A DNA stretch of 38,295 bases from Candidatus Aenigmatarchaeota archaeon (GCA_039091335.1 JAWCME010000003.1:1-38295); one strand, 5' to 3'; counted from the first letter of the stretch, positions 3,001 through 9,000 are shown. Numbers: made by a program.

Positions 3001-6000
3001 GCATCTACTTCATCAAGAATGTAGAAGGGTGCGGGCTTAAATTGTTGAATCGCAAAAAGAAATGCAAGAGCAGTCAAACTCTTTTCTCCTCCAGAAAGAG
3101 AGTCTATGTTTGTTAGTGTTTTTCCTCCGGGGTTTGCTTGAATTATTAACCCAGAGTCTAAATTAAGGGGGTCTTCCAACTCCAGGCTTGCATTTCCATT
3201 TGTCATCCTATTAAACACTTCGTTGAATTGTTTGCTAACTTCTTTTAAACAGTTATTAAATACTTCCATTCTTTTTTCCTCTATTTTTTGTATCATGTCT
3301 AAAACTGCTTTTTTCTCTTCAAGTATTTTCTCATATTTTTCTTTGTAATTGTCAAACTCTGATTTGAATTTTTCATATTGCTCTATTGCCTTAAAGTTTA
3401 CTGGACCAAGAGACAAAAGCCCTTGCTGAACTTCCTTTGTTTCTTGTTCCAAAACCCTTATACTTTTATCCATCGGCTCAACACCCTCATACTGAAGTAG
3501 TTCAATTTTTAAATTTTCCAATTCGGTTTCAATCTTTGCTTTTTGTATTTTTAGTCTACCAACTTCTGTCTGAAGCTTATACATTCTTTCATAGATATTC
3601 TTTCTTTCAATCTTAAGTTTCTCCAACTCTGTTTCTGCCCCAAAGTTAAATTTTTTAAAATCCAAAAATTCTTTTGTTTTTTCCACCTTAGAATATTCTT
3701 CCAGTTTTCTTTTAGCTTCCTCATTCTCTTTTCTAATCCTTTCTATTTCTTTTTCAAGTGCTTCCTTTGTCTTTATATATTCTTCAATTTTATCTCTTCC
3801 AAATTGTCTTATCTTTTCTCTTATCAAATATCCCCCAGTCATCGCTCCACTTCTTTCTATCAAATCTCCGTCTAAAGTTACCATCCTTACTTTTCCAATT
3901 CCTATCGTTCTTGCAACTTCTAAGTCCTTTACAATAAGCGTGTTTCCAAGAACAAATTCAATAGCAGGTAAAAACTTTTTATCAAATTTAACAAGTTTTG
4001 ATGCTATTCCAAGCACTCCGTTTTTCTTCAACATTTCCTTTTCTTTCAGCTCCCTTGGTTTAATTTTATTAAGTGGTAAAAATGTTGCTCTTCCTATCTT
4101 CTCTCTTTTTAAAAACTCTATGCAAAATTTTGCGGTTTCTTCGTTGTCTACCACTATATCATTCAAATGTTGTCCCGCTGCAATTTCTATTGCAATCCTG
4201 TATTTTTCCGGAACCTTTATTATGCCCGCAATCGTACCAAAAACTCCCTTTAAATTTTGTTTAATTATTTCGTTCACACTTCTTGAAAACCTTTCTTTTA
4301 TATCTGTTTCTATATCATTTATCTCCTGAATTCTTTTTATTAGCTCATCAAGCCTTTCTATTTCCTTCTTGTTGAATTCAATTTTTGTTTCATTGGTCGA
4401 GATATTTATTCTTAGAAGTGATGCCTTCCTATCGACCTCTATCAAGTCTGAAAAATTTGAAAACTTTTCTAAAAATTCTTTTACCTTTTTTTCAGTTTCT
4501 TCTAGTCTATTTTCAATCTCCTTTGCTTTTTTTTCAAATTCCAATAATTCATTTTCTTTCTTTTGTATCTCTTCTTCTATTGTTTTTAAATTTTTTTCAA
4601 ACTCACAATATCTTTTATGAGCTAAGGATGCCTTCAAGATTATAAGCTGTCTTTGAAGGTTTTGATATTTGAGTGCTGCATTCCTTTCCTCCTCCAGTCT
4701 TTTGAAAGTATCATATCTTTCGGATATTATTATTTCTGCTTCCCTGAGTCTTGCGTCTACAGCCTCCAAATCCTTTTTTGCCTTTTCCCTCTTTTCATTG
4801 TACTCCGCTATTCCGGAGATTTCGTCTATTATTTGTCTTCTTTCTATCGGGTTCATTTCAATTATGTTTGTCACATCACCTTGCAGTATTATGTTATGAC
4901 CGTCTGGATAAATCCTTGCAGCCGATAAAAGTTCTAGAACCTTTTCTCTTGTTGTAGTCTTACCCTGAATTTTATATACACAAACCCCCTTTCTATTCAC
5001 TTTTCTTGTGATTGAAACCTCCTGATCGTCAAAAGGAAATATTTTGTTCGAATTATCGAGATATAACACTACAGAGGCGTATTGTGCTGGTGAACTCCCG
5101 TCGCCTCCATGATATATAAGTTCATGAAGTCTTTCTGCTCTTAAAGATTTGGCAGAAGTTCTACCTAGAACAAAGCAGATGGCGTCGCATAGATTAGATT
5201 TTGGCCTCAGTTTAACCCCTGAGCTTACCAACACCGTTCGGACCACAAACTATGTTAACGCCATTGGTAAGAGGGATAGATATTCTTTTGTTAAAGCTTT
5301 TAAACCCCTGCAATACTATCCTCAATATCGATGTTTTCAATAAATCACCTTCCTATATTAATATATTAATTTTTTCAATTAAATCAGAATGTAAATTTAG
5401 TTGAAATTTAAAGTTTATTTTTCTTTTAAATCTACCATGCTCAAAATTGCTAGAATTAAATTTTTTATTTAAAAACTTATTTTTAACTATGCCTGCAAAT
5501 CTCCCTAGGGAATGGTTTATTTTGGAAGAAGAAATGAGAAATACTAAAAGCATTCAAGAAAAAATAGAAAAATTAGAAAGGCTTATTGCACTTACACCCA
5601 AGCATAAGGGAACTGAAAATTTAAGAGCGCAGTTGAACAAAAGATTGGCTAAGTTGAGAAATGAGATGGAAAAGAGTAGCAGGAAAGAGCACATAAAAAG
5701 TAAATTTGAAAAAAATGGTGATGTTTTGGTTTCTATACTCGGATTTACTCAAATAGGAAAAAGTACCTTGTTAAAAAATTTAACAAACGCCTCTGTAGAA
5801 ATAAGTAACAAACCTTATACAACAAAGGAAATTGAAAGTGGAATATGCAAATGGAATGGTGTAAGCATTCAGTTTGTCGAAATACCATCGTTTTTTCTTA
5901 AAAGGCACTTAGCTGTAGCAAAAACTTCTGATTTGTTGGTATTGCTGGTAAGAGACGAAGAAGATTTAAAAAAATTAGAATATATTTTAAATGAAAATAA

Positions 6001-9000
6001 TTTTGCAGAGAAGAAAAAAATAGTTTTATTTAGCAATTTTCTAAAAAATTTGTTTGAAGTAAAGGATTTTTCTGAATTTTTGAATAAAATCTTAGAAGAA
6101 GTAAATGTTTTTAGAATTTTTACAAAGCCACCAAAAAAAGAAGTTAGTAAGGATGCGCTAGTTTTTAAACTAAAACCAAAAGTTAGAGATGTTTTGAAAA
6201 GAATAAATGAAAGTTTTCTTGAAACCTTTAAATTTGCAAAAGTTTTTAGGAAAAAAGAAATTAAACGGGTTGGTCTGGATTATGAGCTTGAAGACGGAGA
6301 TATCATTGAAGTTCATGCTTAGTTTTTTTTAAACATGCAATAAGTCTTTATGGGCTCGGCGGGATTTGAACCCGCGACCATTCCCCCTTATCGAACGGGT
6401 TGCTTCCTGGTATCAAAGCTTTTAATAGATAAAAGCTTCAGCTAGTTCCGCTGCTTTCGGCTACATTTCATCTACCATGCTGAGCTACGAGCCCTCATTT
6501 TTTTTAGCAATTCCTTACATTTATCTTTTATCTTTTTATCGACTTTAATAAAAGCTATTCCTTTGTTTGGCAAACCGTAAACTATATTTGTTCCTATTCT
6601 TGATTTTAATGCAAAAGCAAAAGTTGCTAAATCTTCTTCACCCCTCACAAATATTTTAAACCTTCCTTTATCATCTAAAACTTTACTAACAACTTCGAGT
6701 AATTTTTTAGATATACATCTAGGAGGATTTTTAACCACAATTTTTTTAGCTTTATATTTTTCAATTTTTTTCAGCATTTTTTTACTTGTTTTTTTCCTTC
6801 CAATAATCCCATCATAAACTAAAATGTCTGGCTTAATTCCTAAAACTAATGCTTCATAACTTACCATATCACCAACAACTACAAGTTTGCCAGAAAATTC
6901 GATTTTGCTTAAAGAATTAAGTACTTTACCATAAATTTTTCTAAATTCTGGTTTTATTTTTTCGGTCAAAACTAAATCCAACTTTACTACCTTTTTCTAT
7001 TTCTTCTAAAATTGTGGGTTTGCCAAGAATACTTTTTTATTTTTGAGCTTTTTCCATAGCCACAAGCGCTACAAACTTTACTTTTTACATTAAAGCTACG
7101 CCTTCCACACCTTTTGTGTTTAGCTAAACTAATCTACACAAGGTGTGGACAGGTTTCCTTCTTTTACCCATTGAAGGCGTTCCTTTTGCCATGTTTTCCA
7201 CTAACTACTTTTTATATTTGATTTTTATAATAGTTTTGCATGTTTAAAATTTCAAATTCCTTTAAGATTTTATTCGCTCTTTCCAGGTCATCTTTTGTAT
7301 CTATATCGAAAAATTCGTTTGTAGGCATAGATATTGGTACAAACACCTTATTCTTGGATTTTTCAATTATTTCATTTAGATCTTTTTTCGGACCACAATT
7401 TTCAAAAATCTTCTTTTTATATATTCCACACAGCGTTTCATACTTATTTAATCCCCAAAAGTAGAGTATACAATCTACCATCTCTTTCGTCCTAGGTAAG
7501 AGCTCTCTTATTGTCCTATCCTGAACAAAAGGCATGTCGCACGCCAAAAGAAAGAAGTAATCGTTTTTAATATGTTTTATCCCTTCCTTTATTCCTGCTA
7601 CAGGAGAAAAAACCCTTTTGTTATCGGCAATAACCTTTACATTTTTCGAATATTTTCTAACTTCTTCTATAACTTTTTCTCTTTCTTCTCTATTTTTTAC
7701 AACAACCACAATATCAGAAAAAAAATTTTTTGCAACAAACAAAGAATATGCTATTAATGCTTTTTTGTCAAGAAGTACTAAAGCCTTTTCATTTTTCATC
7801 CCCCTTATTTTACCACCCGCGAGAATTATACAGCTAACCCCCATTAAATCTTTTTTTGTAAATTAAATGCTATATTCTTTTCTTTTGAAATTTCTTGTTT
7901 TAACGTTAACAAATAAATTTTTCTGTATTAAAAAGTATTCCATGGAATGGCAGGAAATTTTGGTAAGATATGGAGAAATATTCCTAAAATCGGAGTTTGT
8001 CAGAAGAGAATATGAAAGAAGGTTGGTGGAGAATATAAAACATGCGATTAAAAAAAAGAATATAGAATTTGAGATTTATAGGGAAAGGGGAAGGATTTTT
8101 ATTAAAACAAGAAAAATTTCTCCTGTTTGCAAAATCCTTAGAAAAATTTTTGGGATAATTTCTTTTTCTCCCTGCGTGCATTTGAAAACGGATAAAAAAG
8201 AGGAAATAGTTGATTTTTTTAAAAACAATTTCAATAGCTTTATAAAAAAAGGAAAGACTTTTGCCGTTTCCGTTAAAAGAGTTGGTAAACAAAATTACTC
8301 GAGTCAAGAATTGGCTAGAGATATAGGAAATGTTATTAAAAGAAGGGTTAATCTTTCAAATCCAGATGTAAAGATTTTTGTAGAAATAAGGGACGGAAAT
8401 ACTTACATATACACAAGAAAAATTAGGGGTTTGGGTGGAATGCCTGTTGGAAGTTCAGAAAAGGCTGTAGCTTTAATCTCTGGTGGCATAGACTCTCCTG
8501 TTGCCTCTTGGTTCGCAATGAAGAGGGGATGCAAAGTTGTTTTTGTTCATTTCCATAGCTTTCCACTTGTTTCAAGAAAAAGTATAGAAAAGACTAAAGA
8601 ATTGGTAAGGGTTTTGAATGAATATCAAGGGAGGAGTAAGCTTTATTTAATTCCTTTCTCAGAGATTCAGAGTAGGATAAAAACATCTGTGCCAGCAAAG
8701 TATAGAATAATATTCTATAGAAGGATGATGTTTAAAATTGCAGAATTAATTTCAAAGAAAGAAGGAGCAAAATCTTTAGTTACAGGCGAAAGCCTTGGTC
8801 AAGTTTCTTCACAGACATTGAGCAATATTGCTGTTATAGAAGAGGCAACAAAAATCCCTATATTGAGGCCATTAATCGGGATGGACAAATCTGAAATAAT
8901 TGAAATTGCAAAGAAAATAAAAACTTATGAAATATCAATAAGACCGCAAGAGGATTGTTGTACCCTATTTGTTCCAAAACACCCAACAACCAGGGCAAAA

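Follow-up and report, generated by a model that had tools for sequence, protein, structure and literature searches.

Short inserts with the shape of tRNA introns interrupt six core genes of a DPANN archaeon

In a Candidatus Aenigmatarchaeota archaeon, the genes for SMC, eL37 and four other core proteins are split by inserts shaped like tRNA-type introns, so that a working protein almost certainly requires its message first to be cut and rejoined. Comparison of sequences and predicted folds suggests that the inserts are very probably archaeal bulge-helix-bulge (BHB) introns in protein-coding messages, of the kind known from cbf5, here spread over many housekeeping genes. They are 14-25 nt long; two (SMC and eL37) lie in the window, the whole 38,295-nt stretch of DNA analysed here, and four elsewhere in the genome, a 0.57-Mb genome of DPANN type held in a bin of 29 contigs that is 87.4% complete. 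An earlier note on this DNA had located the six inserts, and its positions are correct throughout: excision leaves a conserved motif and one long reading frame in every case. For the four genes outside the window, removal in silico gives GFEPSG|IAHLG in TyrRS, STSGK|HGAAKA in aIF5A, MVGH|VAHGKT in aIF2-gamma and GLDE|AGRG in RNase HII.

The interrupted smc and eL37 genes

The smc gene and its two partners lie on the minus strand, with the following parts (positions count from the first nucleotide of the window):

5225..5340, minus strand: smc exon 1, with a TTG start at 5340, a ribosome-binding-like site (GGAAGGTGA) before it, and GPNGVGK at its end
5200..5224, minus strand: micro-intron of 25 nt that splits the Walker A (P-loop) codons of SMC between GVGK and SNL; removal gives GPNGVGKSNL
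2820..5199, minus strand: smc exon 2, starting with SNLCDAICFVLG; 792 codons and a stop, with no other lesion
5227..5230, minus strand: 5' strand of the central helix, exon UGGU, paired with intron GCCA (5202-5205) in the lowest-energy fold
5224..5226, minus strand: 5' bulge AAG, with a putative cut after its second base, placed by the common rule and by frame restoration
5206..5223, minus strand: inner hairpin in the lowest-energy fold, CUCAG, an 8-nt loop and CUGAG
5199..5201, minus strand: 3' bulge AAA, replaced in the lowest-energy fold by a fifth pair plus a 1x1 loop
2111-2815, minus strand: scpA, intact and directly downstream of smc (Pfam SMC_ScpA, E 5.7e-16)
1515-2003, minus strand: scpB, an intact SMC partner (Pfam SMC_ScpB, E 2.3e-37)

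The three genes form an operon in which smc is otherwise intact. Read without splicing, its frame meets a TAA four codons into the insert; the Pfam SMC_N model draws positions 2-36 from exon 1 and 38-216 from exon 2, and the first 150 residues of exon 2 are 85% identical to those of the closest relatives. Past the 3' bulge there is no convincing outer exon-exon helix, and the element is therefore of the relaxed (HBh') form.

The eL37 gene is built in the same way:

7134..7192, minus strand: eL37 exon 1, with its ATG at 7190-7192, ending in HTLC plus the bases AG
7114..7133, minus strand: micro-intron of eL37, 20 nt long, separating HTLCR from RCGRRSF at the first zinc-knuckle cysteines
6987..7113, minus strand: eL37 exon 2, which supplies the base A and then RCGRRSF, and includes the stop codon
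7136..7139, minus strand: 5' strand of the central helix, exon GUGU, paired with intron ACAC (7116-7119)
7120..7132, minus strand: inner hairpin UUAG, UUUAG, CUAA, from sequence and fold
7141..7148, minus strand: exon 1 strand of the outer helix, CCACACCU, paired over 8 bp with the exon 2 strand AGGUGUGG (7105-7112) in the lowest-energy fold

Here Pfam Ribosomal_L37e matches in two different frames, with model positions 2-19 and 19-50. Both flanking helices are present in eL37, an outer one of 8 bp and an inner one of 4 bp, whereas SMC has the inner one only; relaxed BHB forms are described as accepted by only some endonucleases (PMC5829648, PMC6379350). Another eL37, uninterrupted, lies on contig C8 of the bin; this copy has TCCATATA at the site of the outer helix and is unable to pair there. 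If C8 came from the same cell, the interrupted gene could therefore be dispensable. A relative binned together with this archaeon is the probable source of the C8 copy: stretches of the large contigs recur, at about 65-81% identity, on several of the small ones, while the large contigs do not duplicate one another, save for one 559-bp repeat inside C27. For the other five interrupted genes the bin contains no second copy.

A shared geometry and a tRNA control

The common rule proposed in the earlier note, a 4-bp helix with 3-nt bulges, describes all six inserts. The last exon bases form with the intron a central helix of four pairs, each strand is followed by a 3-base bulge at the junction, and cuts after the second base of each bulge, symmetric about the helix, restore frames and motifs in silico in six of six cases, with continuity of the Pfam models for SMC and eL37. 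An inner helix of 4-5 bp directly adjoins the central helix in five inserts. The exception is RNase HII, whose insert lacks it, as had been noted; its lowest-energy fold is a bulge-helix-loop, made up of a 13-bp exon-exon helix, a 3-nt 3' bulge, the 4-bp helix and a loop of 10 nt. Each gene has exactly one lesion, always of like geometry and always within roughly its first 55 codons, and within a few codons an unspliced message would meet a stop or lose its frame, so that protein could come from spliced mRNA only.

Against shuffled sequences the fold energies give z = -4.4 for eL37, -2.1 for RNase HII, -1.3 for TyrRS and -0.2 for SMC; the last is no more stable than its shuffles, and energy alone is thus not significant for SMC. 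The expectation by chance was estimated over about 38.7 million combinations of position and length (12-45) on both strands. A 4-bp helix occurs in 952,152 of them (2.46%), and in 20,962 of these (2.2%) an inner helix of 4 bp or more adjoins it, which gives a joint chance of about 5.4e-4 per site and length. That five independent motif-restoring sites should all fit the helix and the inner hairpin is far beyond chance.

After transcription, the last four exon bases would pair with four bases near the 3' end of the intron, and the inner hairpin (in RNase HII, the long exon-exon helix) would stack on this central helix and so present two A-rich 3-base bulges, four base pairs apart. We infer that the tRNA-splicing endonuclease, EndA, cuts each bulge after its second base and that RtcB then seals the exons, by which the Walker A motif of SMC and the zinc-knuckle motif of eL37 would be restored.

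The same rule can be followed in a tRNA gene of the window:

26423..26432, plus strand: tRNA-Ala(CGC) intron, 10 nt, at the canonical position 37/38, UUCG CA|A ... UGGA AA|A

This intron serves as a control within the genome, as it obeys the cut rule of the mRNA inserts and its bulges are similarly A-rich. The rule-based cut is the only candidate with four of four pairs that gives tRNA-Ala(CGC), and it yields an anticodon loop of 7 nt; the G3:U70 pair of this tRNA was read by eye. Further tRNAs of the window are interrupted at positions that are not canonical, and a broad-specificity endonuclease must therefore act in the cell.

As for the enzymes, RtcB is present in the bin (G000:C25:37091-37729, E 4.6e-85) in a gene that runs to the end of its contig. 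The endonuclease gene, which the earlier note had already sought in vain, gave no match in the bin to the profile PF01974 at E <= 10, and a tblastn search with the EndA proteins of six relatives did no better (best E 0.6). Of 80 relatives, 78 have EndA, as do all 30 of the high-quality genomes. The lack of a match in the bin counts against the BHB reading, and so does the type of the relatives' EndA, which looks to be alpha4, called strict unless it carries an extra loop (PMC5829648).

Recurrence of the inserts in relatives

The earlier note held that five of the six inserts were unseen in relatives. This stands for SMC, whose insert is absent at that site from 29 genome loci and 17 metagenome loci, and for eL37, which is split at model position 19 in none of the 80 relatives searched; with no carriers among relatives, the case for these two is therefore made entirely by geometry and motif restoration. 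The claim does not hold for aIF2-gamma, aIF5A and RNase HII, for which same-site carriers were found; with TyrRS, four of the six intron positions are common to other genera or families. Together with the rule shared by tRNA-Ala, RtcB in the bin and EndA in the relatives, these four recurrent same-codon inserts support the note's core reading of BHB pre-mRNA introns handled by the tRNA-splicing machinery, and do so more strongly than the note could claim.

Of 41 TyrRS loci read in relatives, six (G034, G020, G015, G047, G164 and G128) have an insert of 20-29 nt at this codon; these are other carriers than those of the note, and the genome with the handle G074, which it had named as one, has an uninterrupted TyrRS. 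Pairing in the TyrRS alignment (A1) extends to 91.2% of 91 cells; sliding the partner strand lowers this to 28-47%. Five pairs have changed on both sides, against 0-1 when slid. One such pair joins a synonymous exon site (Ser AGU/AGC) to an intron base and is CG in five sequences and UA in two. G164 and G128 form only three of the four central-helix pairs, which counts against the BHB reading.

Six of 34 relatives have an aIF2-gamma intron at the same site, of 19-33 nt. Pairing is complete (61 of 61 cells, 100%), as against 10-47% when slid, with double changes in five of five inner-helix pairs, and the exon hexamer TCGGAC is found in seven of seven carriers and in none of 26 intron-free loci, which have 12 different hexamers at this place. 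Of 31 relatives informative for aIF5A, 2 have an intron at this site, and the helices differ; for RNase HII the count is 9 of 29 relatives, most with an inner helix of 3-4 bp, the 14-nt insert described here being the minimal form among them. By sequence comparison, the helices are kept by compensatory change while the sequences differ, in TyrRS and aIF2-gamma by these counts and in aIF5A and RNase HII qualitatively.

Alternative explanations and known parallels

Could the interrupted genes be decaying pseudogenes, and the hairpin-like inserts meaningless debris? Gene loss does happen in reduced DPANN genomes, the bin has an intact eL37 on C8, and no relative read has the SMC and eL37 inserts at these sites. 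One lesion in each of six genes, identical in geometry, is not what decay would leave, however, and the exons are open and conserved (as in the 792 codons of SMC and their 85% identity to relatives). Other genera share the codon position of four inserts and show compensatory changes there, five genes have no second copy, and C8 looks like part of a co-binned relative, since small contigs duplicate large ones; we consider decay extremely improbable. Errors of assembly, binning or sequencing are more improbable still, to the point of being negligible. A bin of 29 contigs with signs of a second related organism invites the suspicion, but independent contigs span the SMC insert (X1 record 4, X2 record 12) and the eL37 insert (X1 record 8, X2 record 15, X3 record 23) with 0 differences and 0 gaps, in two or three samples respectively, X1, X2 and X3 being assemblies of three samples from a single study, one of them possibly the source sample. 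Same-site inserts are also found in relatives from other assemblies. No insert-free allele was seen at SMC or eL37 among the X1-X3 contigs, in which rare variants drop out.

Ribosomes might also hop over the inserts while the mRNA is never cut, as in the programmed translational bypass of phage T4 gene 60 and of the yeast mitochondrial "byps". The short length of the inserts, their hairpin and the stop that comes after them would suit this, and in SMC the take-off codon AAG and the landing codon AAA both specify lysine. Bypass of the gene-60 type uses matching take-off and landing codons on either side of the gap, whereas these are mismatched in eL37 (AGA and AAA) and TyrRS (GGA and ACA); a conserved exon-intron helix with two bulges four pairs apart would be superfluous for it, and the identical rule places the tRNA-Ala intron at 37/38. 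Hopping is therefore very improbable. A different matter is whether true BHB elements act mainly as a switch, in which partial or conditional splicing sets the protein level, rather than as neutral selfish passengers. An unspliced message would give a short, harmless peptide, as all six inserts fall within the early codons, and removal of a 5'-UTR BHB intron is reported to matter for HVO_1309 expression in Haloferax (PMC7714728). The patchy distribution among close relatives (the aIF2-gamma intron is present in one of five loci read in genus g11) argues against an essential regulatory role, and we regard a switch as unlikely.

Unconventional splicing of HAC1/XBP1, a stress-regulated eukaryotic pathway that employs Ire1 plus RtcB or Trl1, resembles the splicing predicted here in that mRNA is cut at paired stem-loops, independently of the spliceosome, and joined by a tRNA ligase; the nuclease and the motif differ. 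The closest precedent for BHB introns in messages is the cbf5 pre-mRNA intron of Crenarchaeota (Watanabe 2002; Yoshinari 2006; Yokobori 2009, PMC2738675), described as short, lying in coding sequence, too small to encode anything, excised by the tRNA-splicing endonuclease, and gained and lost among relatives. Its splicing has been shown, whereas the inserts here are known from DNA; and while the cbf5 case is confined to a single gene of a single phylum, whose endonuclease is a heterotetramer, one genome here has at least six housekeeping genes affected, and its relatives carry an alpha4-like EndA. The note's claim that the inserts are the shortest known is marginal, for cbf5 introns are given as 16-44 bp (PMC2738675) and those of 14-25 nt are therefore not much shorter, and its claim of a general archaeal process is broader than the data allow, since they describe an order-wide habit in one DPANN lineage. 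BHB introns of archaeal tRNA and rRNA likewise have two 3-nt bulges, 4 bp apart, at the exon-intron borders, and are described as including relaxed HBh' and bulge-helix-loop variants that lack one flank (Hirata 2019, PMC6379350). Our inserts differ in lying in mRNAs, where codons supply the exon strand of the helix and synonymous sites are therefore constrained. In Haloferax volcanii HVO_1309 the substrate of the archaeal splicing endonuclease is also an mRNA, as predicted for our inserts, but that intron is placed in the untranslated leader and leaves the reading frame uninterrupted (Schwarz 2020, PMC7714728).

LAGLIDADG inteins in P-loop motifs share with our inserts the choice of invariant motifs that tolerate only precise removal. 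Relatives carry inteins at SMC GxGK|S and aIF2-gamma HGK|T, those at the SMC site matching Pfam Intein_splicing and LAGLIDADG_3; the SMC intron lies within one base of that insertion point, and the aIF2-gamma intron lies four codons from its intein site. In the SMC P-loop of a metagenome relative, a different intron of 15 nt, also obeying the rule, lies three codons upstream. Inteins are translated and removed from the protein, whereas the inserts must leave at the RNA level; at 14-25 nt, with stops or frameshifts, the six inserts are not themselves inteins. We speculate, tentatively and with more doubt than belief, that the micro-introns mark battlegrounds of homing endonucleases, either as what deletion has left of mobile BHB introns in which such an endonuclease was once encoded or as spacers that split its target. 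If the latter were true, a spacer of 14-25 bp would divide the endonuclease's DNA target and immunise the gene against intein invasion, and the protein would pay nothing for this, because the spacer is taken out at the RNA stage.

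The interrupted genes and the geometry of their inserts

The bin that holds the window (569,737 bp in 29 contigs, about 33% G+C, 87.4% complete) carries short inserts, probably bulge-helix-bulge (BHB) introns, in six genes. Two of these, smc and eL37, lie in the window, with the following parts.

5340 (start, TTG), minus strand: exon 1 of smc, last residues GPNGVGK
5200-5224, minus strand: smc insert, 25 nt, with a TAA four codons into it
7192 (start), minus strand: exon 1 of eL37, ending in HTLC and the bases AG
7114-7133, minus strand: eL37 insert, 20 nt, containing TAG

Beyond its insert smc continues in a frame shifted by one base, beginning SNLCDAICFVLG and with 792 open codons; exon 2 of eL37, after the 20-nt insert, is a single A followed by RCGRRSF. 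Each protein is split into two abutting Pfam pieces, which cover positions 2-36 and 38-216 of the SMC_N model and positions 2-19 and 19-50 of Ribosomal_L37e. Independently assembled DNA contigs from three samples of one study, the source sample possibly among them, agree with the window without a single difference, two of them (X1 and X2) across the smc insert and all three (X1, X2 and X3) across that of eL37. Both inserts lie where the earlier note had put them, and an assembly error is excluded, as independent contigs carry both unchanged. The four inserts on other contigs, in TyrRS, aIF5A, aIF2-gamma and RNase HII, also match the earlier description in position and in the motifs restored, and the observation is confirmed; there, too, the Pfam matches of second exons begin inside the model (at position 19 of tRNA-synt_1b, 14 of GTP_EFTU and 6 of RNase_HII).

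One positional rule is obeyed by all six inserts: four exon bases ending two before the 5' cut pair with four intron bases ending two before the 3' cut, and each strand is followed by a bulge of three bases, with the cut between its second and third bases. Between the helix strands five of the six form a hairpin of 4-5 bp. In smc the helix is UGGU/GCCA, the bulges are AAG and AAA and the hairpin is CUCAG...CUGAG; an outer helix is lacking, as in the relaxed HBh' form, and the fold energy reaches a z of only -0.2. In eL37 the helix GUGU/ACAC, the bulges AGA and AAA and the hairpin UUAG...CUAA are joined by an exon-exon helix of 8 bp, and the lowest-energy fold is the structure given by the rule (z = -4.4). 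The insert of RNase HII has no hairpin, and its lowest-energy fold is a bulge-helix-loop, in which a 13-bp helix between the exons is followed by a bulge of 3 nt, the 4-bp helix and a loop (z = -2.1). Across the genome a 4-bp helix occurs at 2.46% of position and length combinations, and in 2.2% of these it is accompanied by a hairpin of 4 bp or more; with a joint rate of about 5.4e-4, luck cannot explain the fit at all five motif-restoring sites. Geometry, motif restoration and covariation in relatives together support the reading of the inserts as BHB pre-mRNA introns that the earlier note had proposed, with splicing at the RNA level as its prediction.

All six introns lie within roughly the first 55 codons of their genes, which may reflect the N-terminal location of the motifs, the way the introns were discovered, or selection that favours an early stop in unspliced messages.

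Inserts at the same sites in relatives

Four of the six intron positions are common to relatives across an order.

Inserts in relatives at or near the sites interrupted in the bin
TyrRS: matches in 182 of 201 genomes; same-site insert of 20-29 nt in 6 of 41 relatives' loci (G034, G020, G015, G047, G164, G128), a biased sample of 29 best matches and 12 loci picked for a short open frame
aIF2-gamma: matches in 92 of 101 genomes; same-site insert of 19-33 nt in 6 of 34 relatives (G001, G010, G014, G049, G004, G073)
aIF5A: matches in 86 of 101 genomes; same-site insert in 2 of 31 informative relatives, G015 (28 nt) and G040 (29 nt)
RNase HII: matches in 98 of 101 genomes; of 29 relatives read, 9 interrupted between DE and AGRG, 5 at a second site and 15 uninterrupted
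RNase HII, second site about three codons further on: loci L226, L234, L240, L242 and L222 (G088, G085, G047, G041 and G044)

The TyrRS insert lies between EPSG and the residue preceding xHLG. In the TyrRS alignment 91.2% of cells are paired, against 28-47% when the partners are slid, and both sides have changed in five pairs, against none or one; one of these double-changed pairs joins an intron base to the third, synonymous base of a Ser codon. A single central-helix mismatch occurs in each of G164 and G128, where the rule, worked by hand, still restores the frame. The aIF2-gamma carriers span three families, and in their alignment all 61 cells (100%) are paired, with covariation in all five hairpin pairs. 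Every carrier has the exon hexamer TCGGAC, which occurs in none of the 26 intron-free loci; such a restriction could stem from selection for the helix or from co-conversion during homing. The hairpins of the aIF5A carriers are unrelated to one another. In RNase HII the central helix GACG/CGUY is kept and a hairpin of 3-4 bp is usual, and G006 (15 nt) and our bin (14 nt) have stripped-down forms; folded by eye, the second-site insert of G088 combines a central helix UGGC/GCCA with a long inner one.

The smc intron recurs at its site in none of 29 genome loci and 17 readable metagenome loci. For eL37, where 72 genomes among 80 relatives and our bin exceed the Pfam cut-off, no relative among the 80 is split at model position 19; the partial matches of G012 and G080 adjoin contig ends and are uninformative. 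The view that five of the six inserts are unseen in relatives therefore stands for SMC and eL37 and falls for aIF2-gamma, aIF5A and RNase HII, and the same-site inserts make the case for introns much stronger than the earlier note had it. In G049 the eL37 match (G049:C13:18803-18913) stops at model position 38, in a frame of 44 codons, which could be another interruption deeper in the gene.

Competing explanations and the splicing enzymes

If the interrupted genes were pseudogenes, one would have to explain why each bears a single lesion, why operon partners are intact, why five of the genes are single-copy and why the inserts covary; this reading does not fit. The one real complication, in its favour, is an intact eL37 elsewhere in the bin.

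G000:C8:2086-2238, plus strand: second eL37, uninterrupted (HIRCRRCGRHSF; locus L008/L071)

This small contig of the bin, C8, is syntenic with window positions 6988-10605 at 70-82% identity, and several others (C7, C13, C6, C10 and more) duplicate parts of large contigs at 65-81% identity. As the large contigs show no mutual duplication except one 559-bp repeat inside C27, we read C8 as a co-binned relative, and the bin probably mixes two related organisms. The eL37 of C8 is an intron-free allele that also has no exon-exon complementarity. Ribosomal bypass, in which the inserts would be skipped in translation, would need take-off and landing codons that match, and these match in smc only.

Splicing of the inserts as pre-mRNA introns has been proposed to involve the tRNA-splicing endonuclease EndA and the RNA ligase RtcB. 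RtcB is encoded in the bin. EndA is absent from it both to the PF01974 profile, as the earlier note had reported, and to tblastn with the EndA proteins of six relatives; as 78 of 80 relatives have EndA, 30 of 30 high-quality genomes among them, its absence is most simply explained by the 13% of the genome that the bin lacks. In the relatives the enzyme consists of one alpha4-like unit of about 190 aa (188 aa in G026, L118:1240-1803), which aligns end to end with the alpha4 enzyme of Methanocaldococcus jannaschii (1a79, E 1.7e-29) and, compared with it, carries a lysine-rich insert of 6 residues between the catalytic Tyr and His. Loop-bearing alpha4 endonucleases of DPANN archaea have been linked with heavily disrupted tRNA genes in the available text of Kaneta 2018 (PMC5829648). 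The tRNAs that Rfam finds in the window carry inserts as well (10, about 24, and 22 + 35 nt), the large ones in two matches.

24121-24257, minus strand: tRNA match with large insert (Rfam)
25026-25125, minus strand: tRNA match with large insert (Rfam)

In one tRNA 22 additional bases fall in the D-loop region and 35 in the anticodon loop, and a further tRNA has about 24. ARAGORN, with introns allowed or on rule-spliced tRNAs, was too permissive for intron mapping, and tRNA-Ala(CGC) is the sole tRNA case used: its 10-nt intron has the cut rule and the A-rich bulges of the mRNA inserts. With such inserts in its own tRNAs, the organism needs a splicing enzyme of this kind.

Further introns, known cases and intein sites

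Joining of open reading frames is uninformative by itself, as a frame is "restored" by 3.1% of rule matches and by 3.2% of random deletions, mostly at gene junctions. A strict signature (central helix with at least 2 G-C pairs, 5' bulge beginning with A, AA in the 3' bulge, inner helix of 4 bp or more, at most 32 nt long) has 55 matches genome-wide, and those listed as joining frames include the SMC, TyrRS, aIF5A and aIF2-gamma introns. That of eL37 fits the signature by eye and is missing from this list because its exon 2 is shorter than 50 codons. Rejected were matches on C28, at the junction of FtsZ and a neighbouring gene, and on C12, at the junction of genes for an Fe-S protein and a membrane protein, as well as window 9791-9836 (plus strand), where genes for an ABC-transporter ATPase and an ABC-2 permease overlap by 46 nt; a match at the start of rtcB is also false. 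The scan, which cannot detect very short exons or in-frame introns free of stops, yielded no seventh intron.

In the available parts of the literature searched, a spliced BHB intron in an archaeal coding sequence is reported for cbf5 of Crenarchaeota only: the accessible text of Schwarz 2020 (PMC7714728) names it as the sole other report besides the authors' own 5'-UTR case in Haloferax, and a 2025 paper on the endonuclease (PMC12397907) cites for mRNA, in its reference list as far as available, only the cbf5 work. A full-text literature search found no report of mRNA introns in DPANN archaea. The claim that the inserts are the shortest known is marginal: small size is not new, given the cbf5 introns of 16-44 bp and the putative 12-bp introns of an archaeal virus, discussed long ago, in the available portion of PMC2738675. 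Read as BHB introns, the inserts are an unusually rich case of a known kind; their novelty beside cbf5 and the Haloferax case lies in how many genes are interrupted and of what kind, in the lineage and in the positions shared.

Judged from its sequence, this 0.57-Mb archaeon appears to need tRNA-splicing enzymes for the production of six proteins: SMC, RNase HII, a ribosomal protein, a tRNA synthetase and two initiation factors. If this is true, mRNA splicing belongs to the routine of at least one archaeal lineage and is essential there, and such genes are systematically shortened or overlooked by gene callers, with a resulting bias in estimates of completeness and metabolism in DPANN archaea. 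An RNA of about 60 nt and two enzymes would make a simple test system.

The introns overlap with intein sites, a clue to the way in which such introns spread or are kept. SMC inteins sit exactly between GxGK and S (SN), within one base of the window intron, in 4 of 29 relatives' loci (L048, L055, L058, L060) and 3 of 17 metagenome loci (L162, L168, L177); the two scanned, L058 and L060, give Pfam matches to Intein_splicing and LAGLIDADG_3. Introns and inteins may both persist merely where imprecise loss is lethal, or the introns may have a connection with homing endonucleases, being either what is left of them or spacers that break up the DNA sequence they target; no homing endonuclease was found among the neighbouring genes. 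A 387-kb metagenome contig has a further insert in the SMC P-loop (L163:365-395), 15 nt long with an in-frame TAG, between GPN and GVGK and three codons upstream of the site of the window intron, and it obeys the rule with a GGCC/GGCU helix, bulges AAA and ACA and an inner helix of 2 bp. In aIF2-gamma, inteins lie between HGK and T, four codons downstream of the intron site, in G083 (L148/L160) and G028 (L161), and the frames of G074 and G062 are similarly long.
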